Notes: a model not told the origin generated them from the letters alone. Counted from the first letter of the stretch, positions 1 through 60,624 are shown. The stretch: DNA of 64,000 bases from Candidatus Saccharimonadales bacterium (GCA_035510465.1 DATKHC010000004.1:6481-70480); one strand, 5' to 3'. A program made the numbers and translations.

Positions 1-1573
1 AAAATCTCACTAGTATTTCATTGATTTGCTCTAAATCTTGTAGTTGACCGATGTAAATAACTAGATTCTTAATAAGTTCGAGGAACTTTGCTTCACTCAC
101 AACTGACGCTTTTAAGTTATTCCTACGTCTTATAATGTCATCAATTTGAGGTTGATAACTTGGTATATCAACTTCGACATACTTCTTAATATCATCTTCG
201 TAATACTTTGCGACATCAGCTTTAGTGGGGTCAGAGACTACACCCTTGGCTCTTTCCAACTCACGCTTAGTCTGTTGCCAGTTGGCTCTTACACGCCGTT
301 CCTCGCTTAGTAATTCTATTTTTTCAGCTTCAACGGCTTCCTCTGCGTCAATAACATAATTCTTATAAGCCTTCTTGAGGTCGAATTCGGCTTCTGAGAG
401 CGTACTTATAGCAGCATTTGTTACAACATGAGCGCGAATCGAGTGCTTACTCTTTTTAGGATTATCGGGATTGCCAATTCTGTAAGGACATTTAGCATAA
501 TCACACCTGAAATACACATAAGTCTTCGTCTTTGTTTTACCCGTACCAGTCGTAGCTATCATGTGGTGGTCGCAGTGACCACAATAAACACGTTTGCGTA
601 ATAAATTGAGAGCTGCTGTCTTTGTAAGTACATTACCTTTAGCAACAATACGTTCCATATTATCTATTCGGTTAAGCTTTAAGAATTCATCAGCAGTTAT
701 CATTGGTTCAAATCCATATAACTTAGTAAGGTCAACGGGTTTTGCTTTACCGTATTGTAAGAATCCTGCGTAGATAGTTTCTCTAAACATATCTGATAAT
801 TTATTATCGCTAAACTTAGTTCTACTTCTGGTTTGCTCACGACCATAGGCTTGCTCATAATTCTGCGTATTGAGCCACTTAGCAATATCAACTAAGTTCT
901 CAGGGTCAGCTTTCATACGTTTCTGAAAAGCTTGTTTAATAATTAAGAAGTTATTACCATCAGGTTCAAGGAACCCCTCATCTAGTATCCTATATCCGTG
1001 GACTAATTTCCCTAGGTATTTTCCTTCTTGTATTCTCCTACCGTATCCACGCAGAACTGATTCGCTTAAATGTTCAGAGTATTGCTTTGATAGTACAAAT
1101 GAAATTCCCAACATCATCTTACCCATAGCAGTTGAATCATAAGTGGCAGTTGCGAATAACAAGTCCTTAATTACATACTTGTCCAGCATATCTATTAATT
1201 CACCCGCTTCACGCATATTCCTAGCGAGTCTATCAGGGTGCCAAGCTATAAGACCCTCGTACTTACCCGTCCTTAAGTCAATCAGCATTTTACTAAATCC
1301 AAGCCTAGTGTCTGCTTCTTTGGCGGAGTGTTCTTCTTTAACTATGTGATAATTTGTAATACCGTGTGGGTCGAGTAGCCGTTCTTTAATATCCTGTAGT
1401 TGGTCGCCAATTGATTTATCTTGTTTCTCGGAGCTTTCATCAGAACTTTTACGAAGATAAATTACATACTTTAAATTCTTCTTGTCTATTTCTCTGTAGA
1501 AATCACCATATCTATTCTCATGTATCGTGGACAATAGTCCCAACATTTGGTTTCGTGATTCTTCATCTTGCAT
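1..1573 (-). CDS. large serine recombinase (phage-integrase type), C-terminus runs off the window start
   Basis: Hand translation of the minus strand from ATG ~1573: MQDEESRNQ..YVIYLRKSSDESSEKQDKSIGDQL (resolvase-type catalytic Ser region), AWHPDRLARN, Cys-rich zinc ribbon (YCGHCDHH..FRCDYAKCPY), coiled-coil tail. Open to position 1, so it is absent from the ORF track. Confidence 0.8.
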   Translation of the reverse strand, partial: MQDEESRNQMLGLLSTIHENRYGDFYREIDKKNLKYVIYLRKSSDESSEKQDKSIGDQLQDIKERLLDPHGITNYHIVKEEHSAKEADTRLGFSKMLIDLRTGKYEGLIAWHPDRLARNMREAGELIDMLDKYVIKDLLFATATYDSTAMGKMMLGISFVLSKQYSEHLSESVLRGYGRRIQEGKYLGKLVHGYRILDEGFLEPDGNNFLIIKQAFQKRMKADPENLVDIAKWLNTQNYEQAYGREQTRSRTKFSDNKLSDMFRETIYAGFLQYGKAKPVDLTKLYGFEPMITADEFLKLNRIDNMERIVAKGNVLTKTAALNLLRKRVYCGHCDHHMIATTGTGKTKTKTYVYFRCDYAKCPYRIGNPDNPKKSKHSIRAHVVTNAAISTLSEAEFDLKKAYKNYVIDAEEAVEAEKIELLSEERRVRANWQQTKRELERAKGVVSDPTKADVAKYYEDDIKKYVEVDIPSYQPQIDDIIRRRNNLKASVVSEAKFLELIKNLVIYIGQLQDLEQINEILVRF

Positions 1574-1604: not shown

Positions 1605-2183
1605 CTAACTATTAGGTGCTTCTAAACCAATAGCCTTAATCCAATCATTAAATGGTAGCTCTGATAAGCCTACTTCGGGTTCTTTTGAATGAGGCGGTTT
1701 CCAACCAGCAGGAGCAACAATAATTGAAGGTAGATTTAATGTTACCCGTTCTCCATCAATGGCTAACTTTATAGATTTACATAGCATTAGTAGCTTACTT
1801 GGACTATACAGCTCATTTGGATTGACGATACAACCTTGAACCTTAGCTTTCTCGATAACTGACTGATTGTGATTGGCGATAACGGTAACGTAGACATTAG
1901 CTAGGGCTTGTAGGTTCTTATAAGCTATGCGGTGTCGTTCATTAGCTTCTACTCGGTCATCAGCTACCTTTTCCTTGATTTTAATTTCTACAGAATCGGA
2001 CACCTGTTGGCGACTCTCAACAAAGTTCTCTCTAGCCCCGTGTTTCTTTACTTGTTTGAGTGATACACCAAACATTTCAGCTATATCCGAATAGCTAATT
2101 CTATGGTTTTCAGTGTAGAGCAGCTTGATTGCTAACCAATCCACTGATTTTTGTTTATTTGGTCTTTCTATAAGTGTATTCAT
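1605..2183 (-). CDS. helix-turn-helix DNA-binding protein immediately upstream of the serine recombinase (terminase-small-subunit-like N-terminus)
   Basis: ORF track. N-terminal ISYSDIAEMFGVSLKQVKKHGARENF looks like an HTH. Ends 31 nt before the recombinase start, same strand. Confidence 0.4.
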   Translation of the reverse strand: MNTLIERPNKQKSVDWLAIKLLYTENHRISYSDIAEMFGVSLKQVKKHGARENFVESRQQVSDSVEIKIKEKVADDRVEANERHRIAYKNLQALANVYVTVIANHNQSVIEKAKVQGCIVNPNELYSPSKLLMLCKSIKLAIDGERVTLNLPSIIVAPAGWKPPHSKEPEVGLSELPFNDWIKAIGLEAPNS

Positions 2184-2430: not shown

Positions 2431-3594
2431 GTGTCAGAAAGAGAAACCATTTTACCGGGATTGATAGATATGCACGTTCATCTGCGAGACCCCGGTTACA
2501 CTGAAGCCGAAGATTTTAATACAGGTACTGCTGCTGCATTAGCGGGTGGCGTTGTAGCGGTATTTGATATGCCGAACAATAAGAACAACCCGACTTTTAC
2601 GCTAGATAGATTAGAAGATAAGTTTAGTGTTGCTAGAGAAAAAGCTCGTACTGATATTGGCTTTTACTTTGGCGCACCACCTAACGAAGAACTTGAAATA
2701 GGTGGTAGCGAATATCAACAACTTGTAGAATTGTTTAGCGAGGCTGGCAATAGAACTTTTGGGCTAAAGCTATACTGCGATATTACTACTGGCAGCGAAC
2801 ATAAACACGGTGCAGAATCATTCCGACCCGTTGTTACGGCTTGGCTGGAAGCTAATCCTAGTGGCTTAATACTAGCTCATACCGAAGGTAGAGAAGCTAC
2901 AGCCGAAATGGTTGATTTAGTCGCGAGACAAATGGGCGGTAGGATTCATATTCCTCATATCTCAAAGCAAGAAGAACTAGAAGAAGTCATAAAAACTAAA
3001 CAAGACCCGACTGTAACAGGTACTGTTAGCACCGGCGTTTGTCCTCACCACTTATTCTTAACGAATGAAGATGTACCTAGCTTAGGTTGGTATGCTCGTA
3101 TGAAACCTAGCCTAGGTACTACAGCCGACCGTAGCTTTTTACGAGCAAATATAGATTTAATTGATGTTGTTGAGACTGACCATGCACCTCATACTCTAGC
3201 CGACAAAGAAAATGCACAAACCAACAACCCAAATGGTGAAGTAGGTACAGGTAAGCCTACTTGCTTTGGCGTTCCGGGCTTAGAGACCATGCTCCCACTA
3301 TTACTTCGCGGTGAGCAAGAGGGCTGGATTACTCGTGAACAAGTAGTAGAGAAGACATCTGTTAGACCAGCCGAAATACTAGATATTGATTTACCTAAAA
3401 CAGAAGTTCATGTTGATACTACACCACAAACTTTTACAGCCAATGATATTCATTCAAGGTGTGAGTGGTCGCCATATGTAGGTATGGAAGTCGGTGGTAA
3501 AATTGGACGAGTCGTTATTAATGGTCAAACTAAGGTATTAAATGGCGAAGTATTAGCACAACCTAGTGATGGGCTTGTGTTGCTTCCTAAGTAA
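2431..3594 (+). CDS. pyrC: dihydroorotase-type amidohydrolase
   Basis: DMHVHLRDPG metal-binding HxH motif and ETDHAPH motif; GTG start. Confidence 0.85.
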   Translation: MSERETILPGLIDMHVHLRDPGYTEAEDFNTGTAAALAGGVVAVFDMPNNKNNPTFTLDRLEDKFSVAREKARTDIGFYFGAPPNEELEIGGSEYQQLVELFSEAGNRTFGLKLYCDITTGSEHKHGAESFRPVVTAWLEANPSGLILAHTEGREATAEMVDLVARQMGGRIHIPHISKQEELEEVIKTKQDPTVTGTVSTGVCPHHLFLTNEDVPSLGWYARMKPSLGTTADRSFLRANIDLIDVVETDHAPHTLADKENAQTNNPNGEVGTGKPTCFGVPGLETMLPLLLRGEQEGWITREQVVEKTSVRPAEILDIDLPKTEVHVDTTPQTFTANDIHSRCEWSPYVGMEVGGKIGRVVINGQTKVLNGEVLAQPSDGLVLLPK

Positions 3595-3606
3595 AGGAGA
3601 TATTAT

Positions 3607-4566
3607 ATGGCAACTTATGAATTAGCAGGAGTAGAACTAGAATCACCGCTTGTAAATGCAGCAGGTTCTATTAACGGTACTAATATTGATACTTTATTGC
3701 GTGAAGTAGAAATGTTGGCGGATACAGGTATCGGTGCAATAACGGGTGGTTCATTTACTCCTCCTGCTCAAGAAGGAAACGCTGTTAAGTTTGGCGAACC
3801 CGTCTATTACCATGACCCTGTCACTGGTAAGACATATAATTCAATGGGCTTACCTAATATCGGCAAAGACGCTGCGGTTGAGTTAGCACCGCAAGTTATA
3901 TCTAGAGCTAACGGGAAGCCTGTTATTTACAGTGGTTCACCTACTAATGCACCAGAACACGGTACTTCAGTAGAACAAGCTACTCGCCTAGCTTATGACT
4001 TTCTAGAAACTGGCGTTGACCTAGTAGAAATAAATGTTAGTTGTCCTAATGTTGTTACTGAAGGCGGTGGTCGGAAGCCTATCATGGGCTATGACCTAGA
4101 GACTATGCAGGAACTTGTTGATTCACTATCAGACCAAGTCGGCGAAGGACAAAGACTTGGTGTTAAGCTGCCACCTTACTTATCTGACGAAGAACGTCTA
4201 GTTGCAACTGACCTAGCTAAAATACTCCGAGCTAGTAATGTATTTAGGTTCATAGTTACCGCTAACACCATACCTAACCAAGAACCAGTAAACGAACAAG
4301 GTGAACATATACTAACTGTTCCGGGCGGTAAGGGGGGTATGAGTGGTCCTGCGACAAAAGAAACTGGACGAGAGCAACTAGCCATGTGGCGGGAGCAAAT
4401 GGGTGATGGTGTTGATATTGTTAGCACACTTGGAGTTGACTCTGGTGGAGAACTTAAATCCCGACTACAGCTAGGTGCTGTAGCTGCTGGCGGTGTAACT
4501 TTCCTGTGGGAAAGCAGTAATTGGAAAGAAGCTGTTACAAAAGTATTGTTTGACTTTGCCGAGTAA
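3607..4566 (+). CDS. pyrD: dihydroorotate dehydrogenase (class 1 type)
   Basis: LVNAAG and INVSCPN motifs; 12 nt after pyrC with an AGGAG RBS. Confidence 0.85.
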   Translation: MATYELAGVELESPLVNAAGSINGTNIDTLLREVEMLADTGIGAITGGSFTPPAQEGNAVKFGEPVYYHDPVTGKTYNSMGLPNIGKDAAVELAPQVISRANGKPVIYSGSPTNAPEHGTSVEQATRLAYDFLETGVDLVEINVSCPNVVTEGGGRKPIMGYDLETMQELVDSLSDQVGEGQRLGVKLPPYLSDEERLVATDLAKILRASNVFRFIVTANTIPNQEPVNEQGEHILTVPGGKGGMSGPATKETGREQLAMWREQMGDGVDIVSTLGVDSGGELKSRLQLGAVAAGGVTFLWESSNWKEAVTKVLFDFAE

Positions 4567-4945: not shown

Positions 4946-5320
4946 CTAAGTAGCTACTCCGGCTAGGTGAACTAGCTTACCCGATACTGTAAATACTGCA
5001 CTTGGGTAATTTGGTTCTGTTTCAGTATAGGAATCACTTGTTTCATCATCTCTTATATTAACTTCCGCAGTAAAGCGCCGTATCTTACCGTCGTTATCAA
5101 CGAAACTACCAGTTGCAGAACCCCACCCTTGGCCTTCTTCCACCGCTTCAAGTGTACAAGCTTCTGTTAATGTTCCGTCAGGGTGATGTGTATAGCCTTT
5201 TTCGCCTACACCCTTGGCACTAATGCCATAAGTCTGAGTCTCTAACCACTTATTCAGCAACTCTTGCTTCTCGGCTTCTGACCTAGTTAATATCTTAATA
5301 GTATCGTACATACTTCCCAT
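4946..5320 (-). CDS. hypothetical protein
   Basis: ORF track; no motif recognised. Confidence 0.4.
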   Translation of the reverse strand: MGSMYDTIKILTRSEAEKQELLNKWLETQTYGISAKGVGEKGYTHHPDGTLTEACTLEAVEEGQGWGSATGSFVDNDGKIRRFTAEVNIRDDETSDSYTETEPNYPSAVFTVSGKLVHLAGVAT

Positions 5321-5640
5321 AAACTCTTGTCCCTCACTATACTTAAAGTTTGATTGATTTTTGGATATTTGCTTTAGTATGCTTTATGTTACACCTATAG
5401 CATTACCATTTCAACTACATTATTTAACTGTAGTTTGAGAACGCTGTGGCATAGTAGTTAAGAGTACGATATAACGCTGTCATATCTACAGAACAAGCAA
5501 GCTTTTCGGCTTCTTGGGAGTAAAATCAAAGTCTTTAAACATATTAAGCACACTAGCAGTACTAGAATATCTGTCCAGTATCTCATTTATTAAGTCTTCT
5601 CGTGGAGTTTGAGCTGACTCTGCGTTGTGCAGCCAGTAAG

Positions 5641-5685
5641 TTATTGTATCTCTTAATTTGGTAGGTATGGCTATAGGGTTCGAAC
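5641..5685 (+). repeat. type-c linker module, copy 1 (TTATTGT.TCTCT..GGTATGGCTATAGGGTTCGAAC)
   Basis: Aligns by eye with 12721-12765 and 13721-13767. Contains an inverted T-loop-like GGRTTCGAAC. Preceded by ..CAGCCAGTAAGTTATTGT, similar to the CAGCCATAAAGTTATTGT that spans the 12715/12716 junction. Confidence 0.6.
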
Positions 5686-6285: not shown

Positions 6286-6314
6286 GTACGGAACTCAACC
6301 TCGAGTCCCAGCCA
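6286..6314 (+). repeat. 29-nt cassette repeat
   Basis: GTACGGAACTCAACCTCGAGTCCCAGCCA, followed by AGCATAAGCGGTTTGA. Confidence 0.9.
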
Positions 6315-6333
6315 AGCATAAGCGGTTTGATAT

Positions 6334-7580: not shown

Positions 7581-7609
7581 GTATGGAATTCAACCTCGAG
7601 TCCCAGCCA
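7581..7609 (+). repeat. 29-nt cassette repeat
   Basis: GTATGGAATTCAACCTCGAGTCCCAGCCA, followed by AACGTAAGAAGTTT. Confidence 0.85.
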
Positions 7610-7625
7610 AACGTAAGAAGTTTAC

Positions 7626-7649
7626 GCGACTATACCCTTAAAGCAAGTA
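7626..7649 (-). repeat. module B repeat (reverse orientation)
   Basis: GCGACTATACCCTTAAAGCAAGTA is the reverse complement of TACTTGCTTTAAGGGTATAGTCGC. Followed by TCTAGTTCGAGTCTAG at 7658-7673. Confidence 0.6.
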
Positions 7650-7685
7650 GATCATTTTTCTAGTTCGAGTCTAGTGAACTCTTAT

Positions 7686-9069: not shown

Positions 9070-9160
9070 GTACGGAACGCGGACTTGATAATCAAACAAT
9101 GTCTATCTAGAAAATAATTGAATACTATCCTACTTGCACTCGAGGGATAAGCCCCACTTC
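9070..9160 (+). repeat. split/degenerate cassette repeat
   Basis: GTACGGAAC at 9070 then unrelated sequence; degenerate tail CACTTCAAATTCTAGCCA ends ~9160. Confidence 0.4.
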
Positions 9161-9178
9161 AAATTCTAGCCAAAATAG

Positions 9179-9204
9179 TTACTTGCTGTCATGGGATAGT
9201 CGCC
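9179..9204 (+). repeat. module B repeat
   Basis: TTACTTGCTGTCATGGGATAGTCGCC; compare 56406-56431. Confidence 0.6.
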
Positions 9205-10222: not shown

Positions 10223-10251
10223 GTGCGGGGTTCAACCTCTATTCCCGGCCA
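10223..10251 (+). repeat. 29-nt cassette repeat (divergent copy)
   Basis: GTGCGGGGTTCAACCTCTATTCCCGGCCA, followed by AACATAAGCG. Confidence 0.75.
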
Positions 10252-10362
10252 AACATAAGCGTAATAATATGGCCGAGTGAGTACCCCGACAAAAAGCCAC
10301 GATAACCCCGACATTTTGGCTTAATACTTGCCATATACATACATGGAGCATACAATTAGTGT

Positions 10363-10878: not shown

Positions 10879-10907
10879 GTACTGAACTCGACCTCGATTC
10901 CCAGCCA
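10879..10907 (+). repeat. 29-nt cassette repeat
   Basis: GTACTGAACTCGACCTCGATTCCCAGCCA; 7 nt after the toxin stop. Confidence 0.85.
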
Positions 10908-10911
10908 GGAC

Positions 10912-10940
10912 TTGACATTAGTTGGTATATATATTATTAT
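10912..10940 (+). promoter_or_regulatory. sigma70-like promoter TTGACA-17-TATTAT
   Basis: Begins 5 nt after the repeat. This makes the track start at 10912 unlikely. Confidence 0.45.
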
Positions 10941-11285: not shown

Positions 11286-11942
11286 ATGAATGAATCTGTT
11301 GATGATTTAGCTAGAACACTCCTAGACTATATGAAAATGAATACGCCCGTAGAAAAGTCTGACGTCCTTATTGGCATGGGCGCATTGGACATAAGGATAG
11401 CTGAGCGAACTGCTCAATTATTCTTAGATGGATATGGCAAATATATTATTTTTACTGGTGGACTGGGCAAAATCACTAAACACACTCATACACAAACCGA
11501 AGCAGAACGATTTAGGGATACGGCAATAAAGATGGATGTACCGGAAGATAAGATTTTACTTGAGAAAGAAGCAACTAACTCAGGAGAAAATATTGTATTA
11601 GTCCAGGAGTTGCTTGAAAGTAAGGATCTTCACCCTAAGTCACTGCTTGTCGTTACAAAATCGTACATGGAACGAAGAATTTATGCTGCTTACAAAAAAC
11701 AGTGGAAAGATAAAGCTGCCAGAATTATAGTTACCTCACCACAAATTACATACGAAGAGCATTTCAATGAAGACATCCCAAAAGATCTATTTATAAATGT
11801 CATGGTCGGTGACCTGCAGAGAATTAAAGTATATCCTAAGCAGGGCTTTCAAATAGAGCAGAATATTCCGGAGAACGTCTGGGAAGCTTACAAGAAGTTG
11901 GTTAGATTAGGGTATACGGATTTTGTTATTAAGAATACTTAG
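11286..11942 (+). CDS. YdcF/DUF218-family protein
   Basis: VLIGMGALD..IIFTGGLG..TEAERFRDTAIKMDVPEDKILLEKEATNSGENI matches the DUF218 pattern. Confidence 0.65.
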   Translation: MNESVDDLARTLLDYMKMNTPVEKSDVLIGMGALDIRIAERTAQLFLDGYGKYIIFTGGLGKITKHTHTQTEAERFRDTAIKMDVPEDKILLEKEATNSGENIVLVQELLESKDLHPKSLLVVTKSYMERRIYAAYKKQWKDKAARIIVTSPQITYEEHFNEDIPKDLFINVMVGDLQRIKVYPKQGFQIEQNIPENVWEAYKKLVRLGYTDFVIKNT

Positions 11943-11980
11943 TCAATCAAGGTTCGAAAATCGTCCCTTATTGACAGCCA
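11942..11980 (+). repeat. hairpin variant of the cassette repeat ending AGCCA
   Basis: GTCAATCAAGG-TTCGAAAATCGTC-CCTTATTGAC + AGCCA: a 10-bp imperfect stem with a T-loop-like TTCGAAA. It occupies the position of the 29-mer. Confidence 0.6.
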
Positions 11981-12026
11981 ATATTTCACCTCTGTGAGTT
12001 TTTATGCTCACCTCAGTTCGAATCCC
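11981..12026 (+). repeat. type-b linker module
   Basis: ATATTTCACCTCTGTGAG..CTCACCTCAGTTCGAATCCC; compare 15203, and 56446 and 57758 in reverse. Confidence 0.6.
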
Positions 12027-12081
12027 TTATGGGTTCCTCCGCAAAAAGTCGTTTGAAATTTGTGGCTGTTATTATGTAGTC

Positions 12082-12675
12082 ATGAGCGAATCAAAGTTAA
12101 ACATTAGTGAACTCCTTAATAGCAAACGACCCAAAGCTGGTAAAACGAAATTTATAGCAATAGATGGTCATGGAGGAGCTGGTAAATCAACTTTGGCTAA
12201 TATGCTTTCTAAACAATTTAACGCACAATTGGTCCCCATTGATGACTTTGCAAGCTGGGATAACTCTGATTGGTGGCCACAAGTTATAAAGAACATATTT
12301 GAGCCGATATCGGGTGGAGCAACTTCACTTAACTATCCTCGTTCTTCTTGGTGGGAGGATCATCACCCAGAGCCTGTTGTCAATCAACCGGTTACAGACG
12401 TAATGATTCTAGAGGGGGTAAGTTCCTCAAGAACCGAATTTCGTAAATATCTAAGTCTGATTATCTTCGTAAACACGCCTAAAGATCTGTGTATGAAAAG
12501 AGGCATCGAAAGAGACTTGAGCACCGGAAAATCTGTAGAAGAGCTGACGGAAATGTGGACAAAGTGGTATCAAGAAGAAGATGGATACATAGCTAGAGAT
12601 CACCCTCGGGATTTTGCTGATGTAGTGATCGACGGGACTCGACCTTACAATGAGCAAATAGTTACAGCCACTTAA
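12082..12675 (+). CDS. P-loop nucleoside/nucleotide kinase-like protein
   Basis: Walker A in IAIDGHGGAGKSTLANML. Start moved to MSESKLN because the track N-terminus overlaps the type-b module. Confidence 0.55.
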   Translation: MSESKLNISELLNSKRPKAGKTKFIAIDGHGGAGKSTLANMLSKQFNAQLVPIDDFASWDNSDWWPQVIKNIFEPISGGATSLNYPRSSWWEDHHPEPVVNQPVTDVMILEGVSSSRTEFRKYLSLIIFVNTPKDLCMKRGIERDLSTGKSVEELTEMWTKWYQEEDGYIARDHPRDFADVVIDGTRPYNEQIVTAT

Positions 12676-12686
12676 GCTTTTAGATT

Positions 12687-12715
12687 GTACGGAACTCAAC
12701 CTCAACCCCCAGCCA
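12687..12715 (+). repeat. 29-nt cassette repeat
   Basis: GTACGGAACTCAACCTCAACCCCCAGCCA. Confidence 0.85.
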
Positions 12716-12720
12716 TAAAG

Positions 12721-12765
12721 TTATTGTCTCTGTTATTTTACTGAGTATGAATATAGGATTCGAAC
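12721..12765 (+). repeat. type-c linker module, copy 2
   Basis: TTATTGTCTCTGTTATTTTACTGAGTATGAATATAGGATTCGAAC. Confidence 0.6.
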
Positions 12766-12771
12766 TTTGTT

Positions 12772-13686
12772 ATGATGAGTCCAGTTATGGACGACCATTT
12801 TGAAAAAAATGCCTTGAGTTGGGGAGAGGGTGGAGCAGCTTGGCTTAAGAGCATTCCAAAAGTTATCAAAAAATATGAAAGTAGGTGGTCGATTAAAGTC
12901 TTGCCGCCTTACACGCTTAGCTTTAATTACGTAGCGCCTGTCCAAAGGGCTGATGGATCGATGGCAGTACTTAAAATGATCTATCCGGGTGACCTGGAGT
13001 TTAAATCTGAAATTAAAGCGCTAGAATACTTTAAAGGTAATGGCATTGTTAAGCTGCTAGAAGTAGATGAAAAAGACGCGATAATTCTACTGGAACATAT
13101 TGCCCCGGGTAAACCGCTGTCTTCTTTAGATAACGACGATCAAGCAACCAAAATAATTGCCAAGGTTATAAAGAAATTACAGGAGAAATCATCAACTGCT
13201 AACAATTTTGTCAGTATCAATGACTGGGTTTCAGAAATACCAAAATATAAACAAGGATTTCTAGGTGAACAAGCTCCATTACCAACATTATTAGTAAATA
13301 AAGCTGAGATATTATTTAAACAGCTTATTGCAACTTCTGCTAAGCCTATACTTGTCCATGGTGATCTGCATCACGATAATATACTTCAATCAAATAAATC
13401 TGGATGGCTAGCAATCGACCCCAAAGGCGTTTCGGCTGAACCGGCTTACGAAGTGGCAGCTATGATTCGTAACCCCTACGAGAAGCTCAAAGATATACCA
13501 GATCTTGCACCTTTACTGCGAAGACGGATTACTATTTTATCCGAAGAACTAGAAATTGACCCCCAGCGTATTTTGGATTGGTGCTTTGCGCAGACAATGC
13601 TCTCAGCGGTATGGAGTGTTGGAGGAGTCAAAGGCCCCGAACACGCTCTAAGAGTCGCGGAAACTTTAGACACACTTGCACTTTAA
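12772..13686 (+). CDS. aminoglycoside phosphotransferase, APH(6)/streptomycin-kinase-like
   Basis: HGDLHHDNIL catalytic loop, LAIDPKG, and overall APH(6)-like layout. Confidence 0.7.
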   Translation: MMSPVMDDHFEKNALSWGEGGAAWLKSIPKVIKKYESRWSIKVLPPYTLSFNYVAPVQRADGSMAVLKMIYPGDLEFKSEIKALEYFKGNGIVKLLEVDEKDAIILLEHIAPGKPLSSLDNDDQATKIIAKVIKKLQEKSSTANNFVSINDWVSEIPKYKQGFLGEQAPLPTLLVNKAEILFKQLIATSAKPILVHGDLHHDNILQSNKSGWLAIDPKGVSAEPAYEVAAMIRNPYEKLKDIPDLAPLLRRRITILSEELEIDPQRILDWCFAQTMLSAVWSVGGVKGPEHALRVAETLDTLAL

Positions 13687-13689
13687 GCG

Positions 13690-13718
13690 GTACGGAACTC
13701 AACCTCAATTCCCAGCCA
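13690..13718 (+). repeat. 29-nt cassette repeat
   Basis: GTACGGAACTCAACCTCAATTCCCAGCCA; 3 nt after the stop. Confidence 0.9.
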
Positions 13719-13720
13719 TG

Positions 13721-13767
13721 TAGTTTTTCTCTCTGTTAATTTTGCGGTATGGTTATAGGATTCGAAC
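13721..13767 (+). repeat. type-c linker module, copy 3
   Basis: TAGTTTTTCTCTCTGTTAATTTTGCGGTATGGTTATAGGATTCGAAC. Confidence 0.6.
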
Positions 13768-13782
13768 TTTCTAATCCGTTAC

Positions 13783-13811
13783 TTGACATAACCATTAGCT
13801 TTACCTAAACT
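13783..13811 (+). promoter_or_regulatory. sigma70-like promoter TTGACA-17-TAAACT
   Basis: Same hexamers and spacing as 7686-7714. Confidence 0.55.
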
Positions 13812-13867
13812 GAAAGTATTCTTTAGAAATTAAAACAATGAAATAACAAACAAAAAGGAATTAAAGT

Positions 13868-15088
13868 ATGAAGCTTATTAAATTAAACCAAGCTGGTATA
13901 GCTCACTGGCTAGTGCCAGCCCTAGTAGTGGCTATAATTGGCGTGGTGGGCGTAAGAGTACTAACAGCTACTCATGCGGCTACGCCAGCAATAGCTAATA
14001 ATTCTTCTTCGACAGGTCCTTTGCTATTTACCACAATAAATAATAATCAGAACCCCGTCACAACTAGTGTAATAACTGTAAACCAAAACGGCTCAGGGAA
14101 ATCAACCATAACTCCACAAAATCAAGCGTATCCTTGGGGTTTCGTATGGAGTCCTGATCATACGCAAATTGCATACACAGATTTGGTATATTCCACTCCA
14201 AATGACGTCTCTACAGCAAGGGGGACGATTAACATAATGAATGATAATGGTACAGACTCACAAGTCATTAAAACAATGCCAGCAGGCTCAGGGCTATCTA
14301 ATTTAGTTTGGTCGCCCGACGGCAAAAGTCTTCTATTCGCGGATGGGTCGTCTACAAATAAGAAAGACAAGAGTAAAGTTTATACAATAGGAGTAAATGG
14401 CAAAAACTTAAATTCGATCGCTAATCTGGAGCCCAATACGGGTGCCCAAGACATGCAATGGTCTCCAAACAGCAAGGAAGTTCTACTTACTGGAGAGCCG
14501 AAGACAAACCCGCAAGAAGAGTTGACGTATGTGTATACCGCTTCGGGTAAATTAGTTGCTACCCTACCGACACCGAATAATAGCTCTTTCTGGGGTAACG
14601 ATGCCTGGACACCTGATAACTCATCTTTGATATTTCATAACAATACCAATAACGAGATTTCAGAGATGAATGTCGCCACTCAAGCAGTAACTGCTATAGC
14701 TCCGGCCTCTTGCAGTAGCAATGATGTATCTTCGGTCAACGTGTCACCGAATGGCGATTTAATATCCTATGACTGTGTAACACCAGTACCCGATACCACT
14801 CCTACCCAGTTTACTAACAGCATAGTAGTCTCTACCATTACAGGCTCTAACCCTGTCGTTGTCGCGTCAGGAATACTAAGTGAAGGTGTTAATAACGCAC
14901 TGCCAACAGAGCGAGGCTGGGCTTATAACAGTACGGCTCTGGATTATTACGTTAGTAGTACCCCAACATCTTCTAACGGTAATCTATACACCGTTAATGC
15001 TGATGGTTCAGATACAAAAGCAGCCCTTAAAAATGTCTCAAATACTGAGATATTCACTTGGAATAGTTCGCCCAGTAATATTTTTTAA
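13868..15088 (+). CDS. membrane-anchored/secreted TolB-like beta-propeller protein (paralogue of 7760..9028)
   Basis: First ~38 aa nearly identical to 7760..9028. PD40-like VWSPDHTQIAY, VWSPDGKSLLF, QWSPNSKEV. Confidence 0.65.
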   Translation: MKLIKLNQAGIAHWLVPALVVAIIGVVGVRVLTATHAATPAIANNSSSTGPLLFTTINNNQNPVTTSVITVNQNGSGKSTITPQNQAYPWGFVWSPDHTQIAYTDLVYSTPNDVSTARGTINIMNDNGTDSQVIKTMPAGSGLSNLVWSPDGKSLLFADGSSTNKKDKSKVYTIGVNGKNLNSIANLEPNTGAQDMQWSPNSKEVLLTGEPKTNPQEELTYVYTASGKLVATLPTPNNSSFWGNDAWTPDNSSLIFHNNTNNEISEMNVATQAVTAIAPASCSSNDVSSVNVSPNGDLISYDCVTPVPDTTPTQFTNSIVVSTITGSNPVVVASGILSEGVNNALPTERGWAYNSTALDYYVSSTPTSSNGNLYTVNADGSDTKAALKNVSNTEIFTWNSSPSNIF

Positions 15089-15173
15089 TTCTGTATAACC
15101 TGGCTAATCATTAAGTCACCGAATCTGTTAATTCTGATTCTATGGGTATAGGAGTGACTTATTTATCTGTACT

Positions 15174-15202
15174 GTACGGAACTCAACCTCAATTCCCAGC
15201 CA
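15174..15202 (+). repeat. 29-nt cassette repeat
   Basis: GTACGGAACTCAACCTCAATTCCCAGCCA. Confidence 0.9.
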
Positions 15203-15247
15203 ATATTTCACCCCTGAGTACATTTGCTTCCACCTCTGTTCGAATCC
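15203..15247 (+). repeat. type-b linker module
   Basis: ATATTTCACCCCTGAG..CCACCTCTGTTCGAATCC. Confidence 0.6.
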
Positions 15248-15881: not shown

Positions 15882-15910
15882 GTACGGAACTCAATCTCGA
15901 TTCCCAGCCA
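15882..15910 (+). repeat. 29-nt cassette repeat
   Basis: GTACGGAACTCAATCTCGATTCCCAGCCA, followed by AAGCGTAAGCGTTTT. Confidence 0.9.
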
Positions 15911-15973
15911 AAGCGTAAGCGTTTTAGGTTCGTTAATTTCGTTCGGCTATCAGATAAATTAAAATTGGAGAGG

Positions 15974-16810: not shown

Positions 16811-16839
16811 GTACGGAACTCAACCTCGATCCCCAGCCA
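16811..16839 (+). repeat. 29-nt cassette repeat
   Basis: GTACGGAACTCAACCTCGATCCCCAGCCA, followed by AGCATAAGCATTTTGA. Confidence 0.9.
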
Positions 16840-16926
16840 AGCATAAGCATTTTGACCTCTTATTTCTATTATCTGATAGAGCTTATTGGCTGACCCTTGT
16901 GTTTTTCTCTGTTAATATAGAACTAA

Positions 16927-18344: not shown

Positions 18345-18373
18345 GTACGGAACTCAACCTCAATTCCCAGCCA
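18345..18373 (+). repeat. 29-nt cassette repeat (last + copy)
   Basis: GTACGGAACTCAACCTCAATTCCCAGCCA. ATAAGCACTATGGGCAAT at ~18399 resembles the variant repeat family of the middle array. Confidence 0.9.
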
Positions 18374-54112: not shown

Positions 54113-54141
54113 TGGCTGGGAATCAAGGTTGAATTCCGTAC
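54113..54141 (-). repeat. 29-nt cassette repeat (first - copy)
   Basis: TGGCTGGGAATCAAGGTTGAATTCCGTAC. Confidence 0.85.
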
Positions 54142-54157
54142 CGTGACCTTGTAGGAA

Positions 54158-55138
54158 TTAGGTATTGATTTCAGAATCAAGTATCCGAGAAAGTGCGGAC
54201 ATACTGTTAAATTCGTAGAATGCCAGATATGCCAGTGCTAGTTCTTTAGCACTAACTTTACGTAGACTAAACCCCCTACCGATGGAACTGATTAATATGG
54301 CATTTGCAAGCATACGTCCTGTACGCTTATTACCGTCTTCGAATAATTGCAGGTATGGAATCAGAGTAAGGACAAATAGACTTCTTGTAACTGGGTTAAG
54401 AGGTTTGTTTATTATATCTAGTACTACATCAGCGTATTCTCGAAGTTGATGAGGGTTTGCAAGCGGTACATAATTGCTAGCGCTAATTTTGACTAGTTTT
54501 TTTCGCAAGCCCTTTTCAATACCTAAGTTAAACGCGATCAGCTTGTGTAACTCTTCAACGGTAGAAAATCTAATCTTATTGTTAAACAATTCTGGGTTTT
54601 CTATTATGAACTTAATAACTTCTTTGTGATTAAGAATCATTTGCGTTTCAAATTCAGTTCGGTTCTTTGCCTTTATGCCCTCAGTAAGTAATAATTGCGT
54701 ATCTAGCAGGGTATATGTATTACCTTCAAGGGCAGAGGATTTCCACGATAGCTCTATAGTTAAATATTCTAGCTCTTTTGCAGTCATTCGCTTCTTTGAA
54801 GCAAGATTGTTTGGGGTAGCAATAATCTTGTCTAGATCATTTTGCTTACTGTTGAGCCAATTTACTAGCCCGTGATTGAAGCGTGTTTCTGGTCGATTCT
54901 CATCTTCAAGCAACCTGGTTGGTATTTCGGTGACGAGTAACTTGTCATATGAGACCGAGTATGAAGGGTTGTTCCTAGGTCCACTCCTATTCACTATCCT
55001 TAGCTCTACTAGCCTTGTTAGGGCACGTTGAATGGAACGGATATCAACACCTGGCATTAACTTGCTTATTCCTGATCCTTTTTTACCTCCAACAAGCAGA
55101 TAAAGGAGTACATAAGAAGTGCTTTTGTTTAGTCTCAT
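54158..55138 (-). CDS. Fic/Doc-family protein with N-terminal wHTH and non-canonical motif
   Basis: QLFEDGNKRTGR in place of HxFx(D/E)GNGRxxR. Confidence 0.65.
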   Translation of the reverse strand: MRLNKSTSYVLLYLLVGGKKGSGISKLMPGVDIRSIQRALTRLVELRIVNRSGPRNNPSYSVSYDKLLVTEIPTRLLEDENRPETRFNHGLVNWLNSKQNDLDKIIATPNNLASKKRMTAKELEYLTIELSWKSSALEGNTYTLLDTQLLLTEGIKAKNRTEFETQMILNHKEVIKFIIENPELFNNKIRFSTVEELHKLIAFNLGIEKGLRKKLVKISASNYVPLANPHQLREYADVVLDIINKPLNPVTRSLFVLTLIPYLQLFEDGNKRTGRMLANAILISSIGRGFSLRKVSAKELALAYLAFYEFNSMSALSRILDSEINT

Positions 55139-55203
55139 ACGACAATATTAGCACAATAAACTAAATTTTACTATGTTTTTGTCGTATGAAACGAAAACGC
55201 TTA

Positions 55204-55232
55204 TGGCTAGGAATCGAGGTTGAGTTCCGTAC
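55204..55232 (-). repeat. 29-nt cassette repeat
   Basis: TGGCTAGGAATCGAGGTTGAGTTCCGTAC; 1 nt from the stop at 55234. Confidence 0.9.
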
Positions 55233-55233
55233 C

Positions 55234-55494
55234 TTAAAATAAGTCGTCCGAACCTTCAAAATATCCCGTAATGCCTAAATTAGATCGTATCTCTGCCATA
55301 TCAGGATCTGTTTGTTCTGGCCCAACTTTCATAAGTGCATCCATAGGACACATTGTTACCTCGAGAAGGCTAGCTCCGCCAGCACCAATTATGCATTCGG
55401 CCATGCCTTGGCGCAGTCGTTTATTGATATCAGAAGCCTCATCGCCAAACCTATCACATTTTCCCGAAAAACACGGAGGTAAATACTCACTCAT
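55234..55494 (-). CDS. hypothetical small acidic protein
   Basis: ORF track. Confidence 0.4.
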   Translation of the reverse strand: MSEYLPPCFSGKCDRFGDEASDINKRLRQGMAECIIGAGGASLLEVTMCPMDALMKVGPEQTDPDMAEIRSNLGITGYFEGSDDLF

Positions 55495-55541
55495 AAATTA
55501 TACTGTAACATATAGTTACTAATCACGCAATGTTCTGAGGC

Positions 55542-55567
55542 GGCGACTATCCCCTCAAAGCAAGTAA
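55542..55567 (-). repeat. module B repeat (reverse orientation)
   Basis: GGCGACTATCCCCTCAAAGCAAGTAA, followed by TCTAGTTCGAATCC at 55576-55589. Confidence 0.6.
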
Positions 55568-55615
55568 CGTATGTTTCTAGTTCGAATCCTTCAAGCCCTT
55601 CTACAACAAAGTCGT

Positions 55616-55912
55616 CTAAGCAACCCCGTCAGTGTATTGTTTCAATATCTCTTGACCAACTAAACCACGAGCGCAATCAATCCTTAAAGCTAAAGTGTCA
55701 AGCGCGATAGCACTATCCCAATCTGGATGGAGCTCGCCTTGATGAACTGCAAGATCGTGAAAGAAGCTAAGCACCTCAGGTTTTACCCTGATTCCAGCCT
55801 CAGCCCTTTCAGCAACTCGTTCAATATCCTCATGGCCATATAAAAGAGTTGCTGTATTGTATGCTAAATGACTAAAATCTCCCGTTTCTCCGCAAGGTCC
55901 TGGTATAGACAT
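55616..55912 (-). CDS. hypothetical protein
   Basis: Start moved to MSIPGP (ATG 55912), preceded by AAGGAG. Confidence 0.45.
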   Translation of the reverse strand: MSIPGPCGETGDFSHLAYNTATLLYGHEDIERVAERAEAGIRVKPEVLSFFHDLAVHQGELHPDWDSAIALDTLALRIDCARGLVGQEILKQYTDGVA

Positions 55913-55946
55913 GTGTACTCCTTTCTTAAAAAAGTATAAATTCTTA

Positions 55947-56345
55947 TTATCTGGGATTAATTTCAAAAGGGCTATCAGCAAAGGCTATTAGCATGTGCTC
56001 AGCTGTATCGGTGTCCCGAATTATGTACATGTCTGGCTCTTCGCCAAAGTGCCTGCTCCAACCACCATCGATTGATAGGTCAACAACTAAATGTATACCT
56101 TCAAAAGATCCATCACTTACTCTGTGTTGGGCGCATAGAGTTTGTGTTTCTCGGCCAGGAAGTGCAACACAACCTTTTGGTACTTCGTATATCCCTACGG
56201 CGCCATCTCCGTCTCCGTGAGAACATGTAAAATCTTGGTGGGGGTCTGTTCTTACCAGGTCTATTAGTCTCTGAGTCTCAGTATAGTATTCTCCCTCAAC
56301 GCTTGGTTCCTTGTCACCTGATACTGCCATATTTTGATTATACAT
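55947..56345 (-). CDS. hypothetical acidic protein
   Basis: ORF track. Confidence 0.4.
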   Translation of the reverse strand: MYNQNMAVSGDKEPSVEGEYYTETQRLIDLVRTDPHQDFTCSHGDGDGAVGIYEVPKGCVALPGRETQTLCAQHRVSDGSFEGIHLVVDLSIDGGWSRHFGEEPDMYIIRDTDTAEHMLIAFADSPFEINPR

Positions 56346-56370
56346 AAGAAAATCTGAGAAATGTTAAATT

Positions 56371-56399
56371 GTACGGAATTCAACTTCGAGTCCCACCCA
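56371..56399 (+). repeat. 29-nt cassette repeat, lone + copy inside the - array
   Basis: GTACGGAATTCAACTTCGAGTCCCACCCA. Confidence 0.75.
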
Positions 56400-56405
56400 A
56401 AATGG

Positions 56406-56431
56406 TTACTTGCTGTGAGGGGATAGTCGCC
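56406..56431 (+). repeat. module B repeat
   Basis: TTACTTGCTGTGAGGGGATAGTCGCC. Confidence 0.6.
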
Positions 56432-56445
56432 TCTGAGGCCGTAAA

Positions 56446-56490
56446 GGATTCGAACTGAGGTAGACATAAATGTTCTCAGAGGTGAAACAT
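56446..56490 (-). repeat. type-b linker module (reverse)
   Basis: GGATTCGAACTGAGG..CTCAGAGGTGAAACAT. Confidence 0.6.
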
Positions 56491-56519
56491 TGGCTAGGAA
56501 TCGAGGTTGAGTTCCGTAC
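56491..56519 (-). repeat. 29-nt cassette repeat
   Basis: TGGCTAGGAATCGAGGTTGAGTTCCGTAC. Confidence 0.9.
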
Positions 56520-56522
56520 CGT

Positions 56523-56762
56523 TTAGGCCGCTTCTAGTCGTGTAATTCTATGTTCGTGATCTTTTAGATGCCTACTAACGTCAGTAACTGCCGCTTTGAT
56601 AACCTTAATGTCAGACTTTACTTCTTTCATATCCTCTTCAAGAAGGTCGACTTTCTTAGAAATCTTTGGGACATCATGAACGGACTCTCTAATAGCTTTT
56701 AGCTCATCAGCTAAAACTTCTCCTAATACTTCTTTTCGTTCGTTGTCACTGAGACTTTGCAT
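56523..56762 (-). CDS. small coiled-coil protein
   Basis: Heptad-like, Glu/Lys-rich, 79 aa. Confidence 0.4.
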   Translation of the reverse strand: MQSLSDNERKEVLGEVLADELKAIRESVHDVPKISKKVDLLEEDMKEVKSDIKVIKAAVTDVSRHLKDHEHRITRLEAA

Positions 56763-56816
56763 ACATCTATTGTATCAAAAATAATTCATAGACCTCACAT
56801 GGTCTCAAAACGCATT

Positions 56817-56845
56817 TGGCTGGGAATCGAGGTTGAGTTCCGTGC
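56817..56845 (-). repeat. 29-nt cassette repeat
   Basis: TGGCTGGGAATCGAGGTTGAGTTCCGTGC. Confidence 0.85.
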
Positions 56846-56854
56846 GGCCGAAAC

Positions 56855-57700
56855 CTACAGCGAAACAACTCTGGACCAGCTGTCGTCTGTCGCTAAGGCG
56901 TAAGCACTTGCAGCCATTTCGCCTTCACTATACTTTGGGGCAGGTACGTCTATGCCTGCAGCCTCTAGCGACAACGCATCCTTCTTTGCAGCTCTATAGA
57001 CAGTTGTTGAAGCAAGCGCAACGCCAGCGAGCATTACCCCAGCGCTAGAAGCCGGAAGAGCTACACCATCGCCAAGTGTTTCAATTGCAGTTATGAACCC
57101 AACGGAAGCTGCGGTAATACCCCCTAAGGCACCTCCCATATATAGAACGGCTTTATTGCGCAGTCTCCGAATTGAGTCCTGGCGGTCTCGATTAAGCCTA
57201 TTAGCTAATAACATTCCTGTTGCATGGTGGAGCTCGTGAGCTAAAACATTTGATAGAGTCGGAGGGTTATCAGAATTAAAAATCCCAAGATGATCATCAA
57301 CGTTATTTAAGTCCGATGATAAATTTAGTACCGTTAGTACTTCCTGTCCTAAGGATTGGCGCAGTACCCACTTAGCTGAAGGATACTCAGCTGAATTTAG
57401 CGGAGAGAATAGCCAGCGAGCTAGGTTAGTTCCCGCATATATCATGCGTCCTGAACGGTGATGCAAACCAGTTACGTCTATAGTAAAACCACCAATGTCT
57501 TTGTGCAAGGTGTCCGTTACATAAATAATATTGTGATCCCAATCAGACTGTGTTAATTCAGGGAAATCCATTTGCAGGTTCTCTCCCAAAGCGTCAGTAT
57601 CAATAACGGCCGATCTGTTAGCTTCACCTAGACTGGAGTTCACATAAATCTTGGGACCAAATGCAGGGTCTAAATCTTGTTGACCAGCAGAAATTAACAT
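56855..57700 (-). CDS. HExxH putative zinc metallopeptidase with Gly/Ala-rich hydrophobic C-terminus
   Basis: LAHELHHATG. Start moved to MLISAGQQ (ATG 57700), preceded by GGAG. Confidence 0.5.
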   Translation of the reverse strand: MLISAGQQDLDPAFGPKIYVNSSLGEANRSAVIDTDALGENLQMDFPELTQSDWDHNIIYVTDTLHKDIGGFTIDVTGLHHRSGRMIYAGTNLARWLFSPLNSAEYPSAKWVLRQSLGQEVLTVLNLSSDLNNVDDHLGIFNSDNPPTLSNVLAHELHHATGMLLANRLNRDRQDSIRRLRNKAVLYMGGALGGITAASVGFITAIETLGDGVALPASSAGVMLAGVALASTTVYRAAKKDALSLEAAGIDVPAPKYSEGEMAASAYALATDDSWSRVVSL

Positions 57701-57757
57701 GTACTTACTCCAGCATATTGATTCGCTAAAGGCAAGCACGACCAGATTGAGGCAAAC

Positions 57758-57803
57758 GGGATTCGAACTGGGGTGGCCTTAAACTTTGTCAGAGGTGAAA
57801 TAT
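57758..57803 (-). repeat. type-b linker module (reverse)
   Basis: GGGATTCGAACTGGGG..GTCAGAGGTGAAATAT. Confidence 0.6.
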
Positions 57804-57832
57804 TGGCTGGGAATCGAGGTTGAGTTCCGTAC
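57804..57832 (-). repeat. 29-nt cassette repeat
   Basis: TGGCTGGGAATCGAGGTTGAGTTCCGTAC. Confidence 0.9.
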
Positions 57833-57882
57833 GCACACAAACTATTTGTAATCAGGTCACTAAAGTGATATAAAAAAGGATT

Positions 57883-58593: not shown

Positions 58594-58618
58594 AGTACGG
58601 GCTAAAACTGCTTATGCT

Positions 58619-58647
58619 TGGCTGGGAATCGAGGTTGAGTTCCGTAC
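58619..58647 (-). repeat. 29-nt cassette repeat
   Basis: GCTTATGCT + TGGCTGGGAATCGAGGTTGAGTTCCGTAC. Confidence 0.9.
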
Positions 58648-58656
58648 TGAACTCGA

Positions 58657-59160: not shown

Positions 59161-59193
59161 AAGACTATAATATCAGACCAAAATGCTTATGCT

Positions 59194-60612: not shown

Positions 60613-60624
60613 AAAGCTTATGCT

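Follow-up and report, generated by a model that had tools for sequence, protein, structure and literature searches.

Gene-cassette arrays joined at a tRNA-Gln-derived core, and a candidate large serine recombinase, in a Candidatus Saccharimonadales bacterium

Introduction

Genes that stand one by one between copies of a short repeat raise the question of what assembled them, and whether each of them can move. The case studied here is a 64,000-nt stretch (the window; GCA_035510465.1 DATKHC010000004.1:6481-70480) from a 90-kb contig in the metagenome-assembled genome (MAG) of a Candidatus Saccharimonadales bacterium (TM7), in which a 29-nt repeat (the 29-mer) separates short gene cassettes and is followed by one of a limited set of sequences; the region 11942-15247 contains four such junctions. 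A sequence-only reading had proposed that a constant left half is joined to three alternative right halves with the crossover point at ..CCCAGCCA, as in hybrid sites whose left part travels with the upstream cassette and whose right part travels with the downstream one. We find that the junctions are very probably recombination joints with the crossover in a shared core, CAGCCA, which is the 3' end of tRNA-Gln. The explanation that we favor, with rather more confidence than doubt, is that they are double-strand site-specific joints (hybrids of the att type) whose accretion was linked to a large serine recombinase (LSR).

Results

Arms and core of the junctions

The 29-mer, GTACGGAACTCAACCTCRATTCCCAGCCA, has 17 copies in the window at three or fewer mismatches (0 in 100 shuffles) and 22 when up to seven mismatches are allowed. 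The shorter CCCAGCCA occurs 18 times against 1.29 expected, and the T-loop decamer GTTCGAATCC 11 times against 0.08 expected, two of the 11 being inside real tRNAs. The 29-mers form two oppositely oriented arrays, on the plus strand at 5.6-18.4 kb and on the minus strand at 54.1-61.1 kb, and the 35-kb housekeeping stretch that separates them has no copy. All of the junction positions listed by the sequence-only reading were recovered (Table 1). The arrangement is reproduced by independent assemblies of two sequencing runs (L007/L008, L010/L011, L009), and is no assembly artefact.

When junctions were aligned, as that reading had suggested, the 19 canonical 29-mers showed a mean pairwise identity of 91%, while the 29 nt upstream of them, unique to each cassette, had 29%, about the random level, and the first 16 nt downstream had 34%, all right-half families pooled. 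Outside the window we found the 29-mer only in one 780-kb MAG chromosome and five short metagenome contigs, where it likewise precedes right halves a or b (below) and flanks unrelated genes. Because the copies are this similar beside random flanks, and near-identical copies accompany unrelated cassettes in other metagenomes, we consider the site to be under selection.

The three proposed right-half families, a, b and c, are real, but a fourth, d (AAATGGTTACTTGCTGTGAGGGGATAGTCGCC), and several singletons (10908, 18374 and 54112(-)) stand beside them. Family d is the reverse complement of a 27-nt motif, M, of which there are seven copies across this genome's two arrays and the related sequence L012, placed either just outside T-loop-type left arms or, inverted, as right half d. 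In b and c the T-loop decamer is placed 35-45 nt from the core, in orientations that are indeed opposite: b holds GTTCGAATCC on the array strand and c its reverse complement. The left half, on the other hand, is not constant: a T-loop-type arm of 29 nt (GTTCGAAAATCGTCCCTTATTGACAGCCA, 11952-11980), a third type of arm ending in GCAGCCA (5602-5635) and, at the head of the right array, a pseudo-tRNA (61017-61081(-); M, T-arm, acceptor-like segment and GCCA, followed by a) serve equally as left partners. Left arms thus fall into four classes (tRNA-Gln, pseudo-tRNA, 29-mer class, recombinase-unit arm), and right arms into at least six (the 3' end of the recombinase gene, a, b, c, d and unique sequences). 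Arms of the two sides combine freely, in at least 12 left/right combinations, every one joined at CAGCCA: variation on the left begins directly 5' of CAGCCA, and variation on the right directly 3' of GCCA. Because variation in both arms starts exactly at the edges of CAGCCA, we place conservative site-specific recombination inside it, and the crossover dinucleotide would be found among these few bases. The proposed crossover point is thereby supported, both by the many arm classes meeting at one point and by a homology breakpoint described below.

Module b stands upstream of seven unrelated genes and c upstream of three, so these right halves are common modules and do not tag particular genes. 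Both always precede same-strand genes (7/7 for b, 3/3 for c), and a often lies directly against the stop codon of a gene that is reversed. The sequence-only reading had staked its case on the modules being conserved outside the window. This holds for a and b, which also follow the 29-mer in unrelated metagenome contigs (L001, L003-L006), but c was not seen in this small sample. Within b, two direct repeats of CACCYCWG, spaced by about 22 nt, look like a protein-binding site. A consensus scan did not pick up b or c as sigma-70 promoters; it gave clear promoters elsewhere, at 7686, 9216, 10912 and 13783.

Orientation of the 29-mer is uniform within each array, the sole exception being one plus-strand copy (56371-56399), which lies in a segment of the minus-strand array that is inverted. 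That segment, about 0.9 kb long (55542-56431), looks like an inverted array piece; it adjoins a pair of 29-mers standing head to head (56371-56519), 91 bp apart with b and M in between. Genes are on the opposite strand in 6 of the 22 units, and since 29-mer orientation nonetheless follows the array, we take the 29-mer to be a DNA site and not an RNA element. We had considered a dispersed repeat of the repetitive extragenic palindrome (REP) or miniature inverted-repeat transposable element (MITE) kind, or an element acting in RNA as a terminator, processing site or tRNA-like 3' tag. Such an element could account for 29-mers that come right after stop codons and end in CCA, for the MITE-like head-to-head pair, and for the core copy that occurs in a terminator-like hairpin at 9356-9379. 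It is nevertheless very improbable, given an orientation that tracks arrays rather than genes, the lack of copies in the housekeeping core, a sharp right boundary at GCCA where partners change, and the lack of an Rfam match or conserved structure (below). The hairpin itself, AACGCCCC-AGCCAA-GGGGCGTTTT, is clean and has the recombination core as its loop. Two array intergenic regions share a 13-mer, ACCCCGACAAAAA (10283-10295(+) and 61219-61231(-)), and there is a similar CCCCGAC repeat near ~10305.

The core as the 3' end of tRNA-Gln

The origin of the core is seen in contig L006, which has an intact tRNA-Gln(ttg) by ARAGORN with the 3' end ..GTCCCAGCCA / ..GGGGGTTCAAATCCCTCCGTCCCAGCCA. Module b starts at the base right after this tRNA, and is followed by a 153-aa open reading frame (ORF) and then by 29-mer and a. 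This arrangement identifies CCCAGCCA as the acceptor 3' strand, discriminator G and CCA of tRNA-Gln. The 29-mer can be aligned, with few indels, to tRNA-Gln from the T-loop to CCA, and intermediates between the two exist, namely the 10223 copy (GTGCGGGGTTCAACC..) and the 11952 arm (GTTCGAAAATCG..; 19/29 ungapped). The exact match to the tRNA is only ~8-9 nt, and that the 29-mer is a decayed tRNA-Gln copy, from T-loop to CCA, is plausible rather than proven.

The junctions are not themselves tRNA genes. ARAGORN and Rfam found only tRNA-Asn, tRNA-Ser and tRNA-Leu in the window, with no cloverleaf in the 29-mers or the pseudo-tRNA origins. The latter were tried as real tRNA or tmRNA genes and set aside, being unrecognized by both programs and having no matching 5' acceptor strand by eye. 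No known RNA family matched the arrays at gathering score or E<=5 in Rfam, and no conserved RNA or single-stranded DNA structure was detected in module b or in the elements composed of M, T-arm and acceptor. Twelve junction strands were folded, giving minimum free energies of -1.3 to -5.4 kcal/mol and z-scores of -1.3 to +2.1 on either strand, no better than shuffles.

These results bear on whether the arrays could be the remnant of a classical integron (a cluster of attC sites lacking an integron-integrase, CALIN), made by IntI acting on folded single-stranded attC hairpins. Arrays of ~0.3-1.6-kb cassettes, mostly single-gene and including APH(6), beta-lactamase-family, toxin-antitoxin and Fic-domain genes, are just what a CALIN would offer, but the folding results contradict attC structure, and the junctions read by eye have neither R''/L''-L'/R' symmetry nor a GTTRRRY box at the boundary. 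With IntI not found in the scanned ORFs and the core being a tRNA 3' end, we regard this origin as barely credible. Arms of about 29 nt that have no single-strand structure fit the duplex sites of a serine recombinase or a simple tyrosine recombinase.

The large serine recombinase unit

The left array is headed by a gene for a 561-aa LSR, which enters the window at its left edge. The full gene (L010 10611-12296) encodes Resolvase, Recombinase and Zn_ribbon_recom domains, with an N-terminal ..YLRKSSDE.. stretch readable in translation. Its 3' end, with an abutting pseudo-tRNA, lies ~60-160 nt before window position 1, where, in the tRNA sense, M and ..GGTCTGGTTCGAATCCAGTAATCCCAGCCA are joined to AGCAGGATTTAAC.., that is, M, a T-arm and ..TCCCAGCCA abut the recombinase gene. 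The codons for its last conserved residues, A-W-L, correspond to CAGCCA-AGC in reverse complement. In 19 close homologues (54-70% identity) the C-termini are conserved to ..NPAWL and divergent beyond, many of them reading on as the antisense translation of a complete tRNA-Gln. Among distant homologues (P0141-P0240; 35-41% identity), many likewise have antisense-tRNA C-terminal peptides, e.g. ..GRGERTRTSDLRVPNAARYQLRHTPM. Judging by these sequences, an attachment site within its own 3' end and the targeting of tRNA genes seem to be a family-wide trait of this LSR, apparently extending across other lineages of the Candidate Phyla Radiation (CPR).

ARAGORN places a tRNA-Gln(ctg) overlapping the LSR gene end in five relatives (L013, L015, L018-L020). 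Throughout, AGCAGGATTTAAC... comes directly after the core, and it is the left partner that differs: intact tRNA-Gln in those five, a pseudo-tRNA in L010 and L012, and in L014 a 29-mer-like arm (..TCTAACCTCGTTGCATAAGGCCAGCCA) joined directly to the LSR 3' end. A tRNA-Gln next to metK is occupied in L013 and L015 and LSR-free in L021; a second unoccupied tRNA-Gln is found in L022. Because occupied and empty metK-linked sites both exist, the LSR unit is an insertion at the tRNA 3' end.

The far end of this insertion is equally well defined. In the DNA alignment of the window with L012, similarity runs from a 124-aa gene through ..GTTGTGCAGCCA / ..GTGGRGTTTGAGYTGACYCTGCKTTGTGCAGCCA and ends at 5635/5636, the base after GCCA; past that point the window has module c and L012 an IS110 element. 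The left arm therefore travels with the upstream unit. The same far-end arm occurs at L013 3941-3969(-) and L018 5294-5322(-), oriented as their tRNA-Gln, so that the LSR unit has the far end ..GCAGCCA in four genomes and GCCA breakpoints on both sides. Regarding the hybrid junctions that the sequence-only reading had envisaged, then, travel of the left arm with its upstream unit is seen in L012, and the LSR's right arm likewise goes with the LSR unit, while a, b and c would by extension travel with the cassettes that they precede.

Between the LSR gene and the conserved far-end gene lie the cargo genes, an amidohydrolase (dihydroorotase-like) and a dihydroorotate dehydrogenase; to our knowledge Saccharibacteria generally do without de novo nucleotide synthesis, in which case pyrimidine cargo would be notable. 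A 192-aa helix-turn-helix (HTH) protein, with weak small-terminase-like HTH matches in PHROGs, is encoded directly upstream of the LSR gene, a position at which L012 and L018 have an HTH gene too, and is a candidate accessory or directionality factor. The LSR unit thus has cassette anatomy, by which the left array reads pseudo-tRNA/LSR-HTH-pyrC-pyrD-two small ORFs-arm/c-cassette-29-mer/a-cassette and so on. In L018 an a-like sequence comes after the LSR unit, and then a second unit whose closing arm is 29-mer-like.

Several further similarities were noted around this unit. The a-like right arm after the L018 LSR unit (AGCATTAGCATAATG) bears on whether module a is the native flank of tRNA-Gln; at two empty tRNA-Gln sites in more distant genomes the flanks are unrelated to module a. 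Right half 18374 was tried as a relic of the LSR 3' end, since both contain GATTTAACA, but the alignment (z=2.4) is within the shuffle range. A stretch at 5543-5590(-), adjoining the LSR-unit-ending arm, resembles LSR residues 517-532 over 16 aa (62%) without significance (E=7.4). In L012 an IS110/DEDD transposase gene (1-1345) lies near the GCAGCCA end of the LSR unit, and the upstream non-coding region of this element contains GCTTATGCT three times, a sequence that is the module-a core AGCATAAGC in reverse complement; the repeats may stand in a guide/target relation to that core, as in IS1111-attC elements or bridge RNAs.

Owing to the position and anatomy of its unit, the LSR is our best candidate for the enzyme, and on this comparative evidence it probably performs the recombination at the junctions, those formed by the 29-mer included. 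Apart from the LSR, the only Pfam recombinase in the scanned ORFs of the window and fetched flanks was an IS3 transposase, and neither a Phage_integrase domain nor IntI was among them. A different recombinase encoded elsewhere in the genome, such as a tRNA-targeting tyrosine integrase, could be responsible, with the LSR a passenger on the same tRNA-Gln site. It is tyrosine integrases that usually exploit tRNA 3' ends, modules a, b and c are unlike the LSR's own right arm, and the scan covered part of the genome. We think this improbable, in view of the lack of a Phage_integrase domain where we scanned, the LSR unit's sharing of the cassette plan (right arm first, left arm-GCCA last) and its first place in the array, and the fusion of a 29-mer-like arm to the LSR arm in L014.

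Cassettes and surrounding genes

The 22 units measure 326-1563 bp and have one or two ORFs apiece. Their products include unknowns, an Orn/DAP decarboxylase, two PD40 beta-propellers, an amino-acid kinase, an RHH-ParE pair, a DUF218 protein, a uridine-kinase-like P-loop protein, APH(6), a beta-lactamase-family protein, a Fic-domain protein and a HAD phosphatase. Packing is tight: the 29-mer sits 3-10 nt past most stop codons, and where a gene is reversed its stop codon may directly adjoin module a. Nothing but the promoter (TTGACA-17-TAAACT), the 5' untranslated region and residues 1-51 (72%) is common to the two PD40 cassettes (7686-9028 and 13783-15088), as if a module for expression and secretion had been swapped; the right halves of these paralogues differ, a-variant with M for one and c for the other. 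Essentially no homologues of the window's cassette proteins were found in other 29-mer contigs, scans of viral contigs gave no match to the 29-mer or to a core joined to b, and a context look-up for population variants of one right-array cassette gave no record.

We give current mobility of single cassettes an even chance. The contrary view is that complete recombinase-bearing elements inserted successively at tRNA-Gln and then suffered internal deletions, leaving 29-mers as inert attR remnants around cassettes that are no longer individually mobile, or never were. There is only one LSR for ~22 units, degenerate junctions and fragments are present (9029-9418, 55495-55615, 11952-11980), and LSR relatives mostly resemble ordinary integrated islands, all as such scarring would predict. 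Inert scars would hardly keep 91% identity in 19 copies beside random flanks, nor recur in other samples with unrelated cassettes, and the tight packing up to stop codons and the intact ORFs of diverse function also speak against decay; we judge this history unlikely.

Among neighboring genes, an IS3-family insertion sequence (18711-19797; orfA HTH_Tnp_1, orfB rve) comes directly after the left array's last junction. Consecutive minus-strand ORFs (~190-390 aa) with almost no Pfam match, apart from one small ORF with a DUF5907 repeat, occupy 29060-41274(-), and a sortase (43239-44393) and a VirB4/TraG-like ATPase (48750-51308) are encoded beyond them.

Table 1. Positions of the recombinase unit, junctions and right-half families in the window
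Feature	Position	Strand	Remark
LSR gene, codons 1-524 of 561	1..1573	-	tblastn 100% identity over residues 1-524
192-aa HTH DNA-binding protein, directly upstream of LSR gene	1605..2183	-	HTH_23 E=0.002, below Pfam cutoff
LSR-unit cargo: amidohydrolase (dihydroorotase-like) and dihydroorotate dehydrogenase genes	2431..4566	+	Pfam
124-aa gene, far end of LSR unit	4946..5320	-	67% identical homologue at L012 1666-2034
LSR-unit-ending left arm (GTGGAGTTTGAGCTGACTCTGCGTTGTGCAGCCA)	5602..5635	+	homology to L012 ends after GCCA
Right half c, first cassette after recombinase unit	5636..5685	+	
29-mer/a	6286..6329	+	
29-mer/a-variant, then M and T-arm-like hairpin (CTAGTTCGAGTCTAG)	7581..7674	+	
Degenerate left arm (..TTCTAGCCA)/d	9152..9204	+	
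Diverged 29-mer (GTGCGGGGTTCAACCTCTATTCCCGGCCA)/a-variant	10223..10261	+	intermediate between tRNA-Gln T-arm and 29-mer
29-mer/unique right half	10879..10940	+	right half = near-consensus promoter TTGACA-17-TATTAT
T-loop-type 29-nt left arm (GTTCGAAAATCGTCCCTTATTGACAGCCA)/b	11952..12025	+	
29-mer/c	12687..12765	+	upstream of APH(6) cassette
29-mer/c	13690..13767	+	upstream of PD40 beta-propeller cassette
29-mer/b	15174..15247	+	
29-mer/a	15882..15926	+	
29-mer/a	16811..16854	+	upstream of beta-lactamase-family cassette
Last left-array 29-mer	18345..18373	+	unique right half, then IS3 element
Right array, ten 29-mer junctions	54113..60653	-	
Right-array 29-mers, with right half	60625-60653/a, 59953-59981/a, 59529-59556/d-truncated, 59194-59222/a, 58619-58647/a	-	
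Right-array 29-mers, with right half (continued)	57804-57832/b, 56817-56845/a-variant, 56491-56519/b, 55204-55232/a-truncated, 54113-54141/unique	-	
Inverted segment in right array: M and T-loop (55542-55589), two genes, 29-mer (56371-56399)/d (56400-56431)	55542..56431	+	
Right-array origin: pseudo-tRNA (M, T-arm, acceptor-like, GCCA)/a	61002..61081	-	same architecture abuts recombinase 3' end
Family a	6315, 15911/15912, 16840	+	
Family a	61002, 60610, 59938, 59179, 58604	-	
Family b	11981-12025, 15203-15247	+	
Family b	56446-56490, 57759-57803	-	
Family c	5636-5685, 12716-12765, 13719-13767	+	
Family d	9173, 56400	+	
Family d	59528	-	truncated

Discussion

The mechanism that we propose would work as follows. 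Each unit in the two arrays consists of a right arm, one or two genes and a left arm ending in CAGCCA. Left arms are the ~29-nt tRNA-like sequence, from T-loop to CCA, or a real or pseudo tRNA-Gln at the array head, and right arms (a, b, c, d or the LSR 3' end) would belong to the next unit. The LSR that heads the left array, of a family that inserts at the 3' end of tRNA-Gln and whose own gene is one such unit, would repeatedly insert small circular units lacking a recombinase at resident core sites, and arrays of hybrid junctions would result. Excision or deletion between sites would also be expected.

Several observations weigh against this mechanism. Beyond AGCA, nothing in modules a, b and c resembles the right arm of the LSR itself. 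Canonical phage LSRs recombine attP with attB only, so that iterated insertion needs a relaxed specificity like that of Ccr or TnpX. LSR sites are ~40-50 bp long with dyad symmetry around a central dinucleotide; the ~29-nt arms here are compatible in length, and a dyad symmetry scan of the sites gave best scores of 8-11/20, off-core and inconsistent between sites. No excised circle or alternative cassette order was observed. The complete genome holding L001 has 29-mer junctions, but no LSR of the same clade appeared among the 120 matches listed. In three of five close LSR relatives (L012, L013, L014) there were no obvious 29-mer arrays within 10 kb, and no convincing lineage-specific repeats near the LSR either; L015 was searched for four fixed patterns only. 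Finally, of the MAG, the recombinase scan took in only this 90-kb contig, less ~26 kb.

Of known systems, the closest functional analogue is the composite island of the staphylococcal cassette chromosome (SCC, SCCmec). There too a large serine recombinase (CcrAB or CcrC) takes part, units insert at a conserved housekeeping gene's 3' end (rlmH/orfX in staphylococci), tandem units, some without a recombinase gene, are split by direct repeats of the target gene's 3' end, and the recombinase can be supplied in trans. Tandem units of the SCC type are what we see in L006 (tRNA-Gln/b-cassette-29-mer/a) and in the junctions of Table 1. The two differ in target (tRNA-Gln here, not rlmH), in unit size (0.3-1.6 kb with 1-2 genes, vs. 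3-60 kb) and in host, here a Saccharimonadales (CPR) bacterium, and the LSR's activity on these sites is a prediction only. Against equivalog models our LSR scored 52.6 bits for CcrB (cutoff 900), 35.5 for CcrA (700) and 25.4 for a third (900), below the Ccr and XisF cutoffs; such scores place it in the same superfamily as Ccr only, not in the Ccr family.

Integrons, including sedentary chromosomal integrons and CALINs, share with these arrays the tens of mostly single-gene cassettes with unrelated accessory genes, a conserved terminal site, hybrid junctions whose last bases come from the next cassette, and a recombinase gene at the head of one array. They differ in having IntI and an attC hairpin, whereas the sites here are apparently recognized as duplex and have a tRNA-derived core; reversed genes in 6 of 22 units and several cassettes with their own promoters are further differences. 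Tandem islands at tRNA and tmRNA genes resemble ours in using the tRNA 3' end, in the direct repeats between insertions and in the intact tRNA at the head (as in L006 and L013). However, they usually have tyrosine integrases instead of a serine recombinase, whereas our units are gene-sized and without their own integrase, and our diverged 29-mer repeat shares exactly with the tRNA only the short match noted above.

With phage serine integrases (phiC31, Bxb1, A118) the LSR shares the Resolvase, Recombinase and zinc ribbon domains, the occurrence of empty and occupied sites, and hybrid attL and attR that have only a short core in common (here tRNA or pseudo-tRNA ..CAGCCA/LSR at one end and ..GCAGCCA/next unit at the other). 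What sets it apart is that the LSR 3' end forms one site arm, antisense into the tRNA, that the target is a tRNA and not a protein-coding gene, that no dyad symmetry is detectable, and that the arrays imply relaxed partner choice.

We tentatively raise a further possibility, which we hold to be less probable than not but worth stating: that this is a working serine-recombinase counterpart of the integron, in which an LSR at a tRNA-Gln-derived platform would capture, excise and reshuffle recombinase-less cassettes, each marked by a 29-nt tRNA-mimicking left arm. Ultra-small Saccharimonadales genomes would then possess a dedicated means of collecting genes, with antibiotic-modifying enzymes, toxin-antitoxin modules and metabolic add-ons among its cargo. 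Full-text literature searches turned up no account of arrays like these, whether in Saccharibacteria or for serine recombinases, and so far as we know the capture of single genes on an integron scale has been credited only to tyrosine recombinases of the IntI kind, working on folded attC. There is demand in genome engineering for serine recombinases whose sites are short, defined and apparently promiscuous, and the sites described here are open to direct experiments. If the proposal is true, integron-like architecture would have been reached by a second and mechanistically independent route, through duplex tRNA-derived sites and a serine recombinase. Episymbiotic CPR bacteria have genomes of <1 Mb, and it would then also be clear how they gain accessory functions, here APH(6), a beta-lactamase-family enzyme, pyrimidine-synthesis genes, a toxin-antitoxin pair, a Fic-domain protein and secreted beta-propellers.

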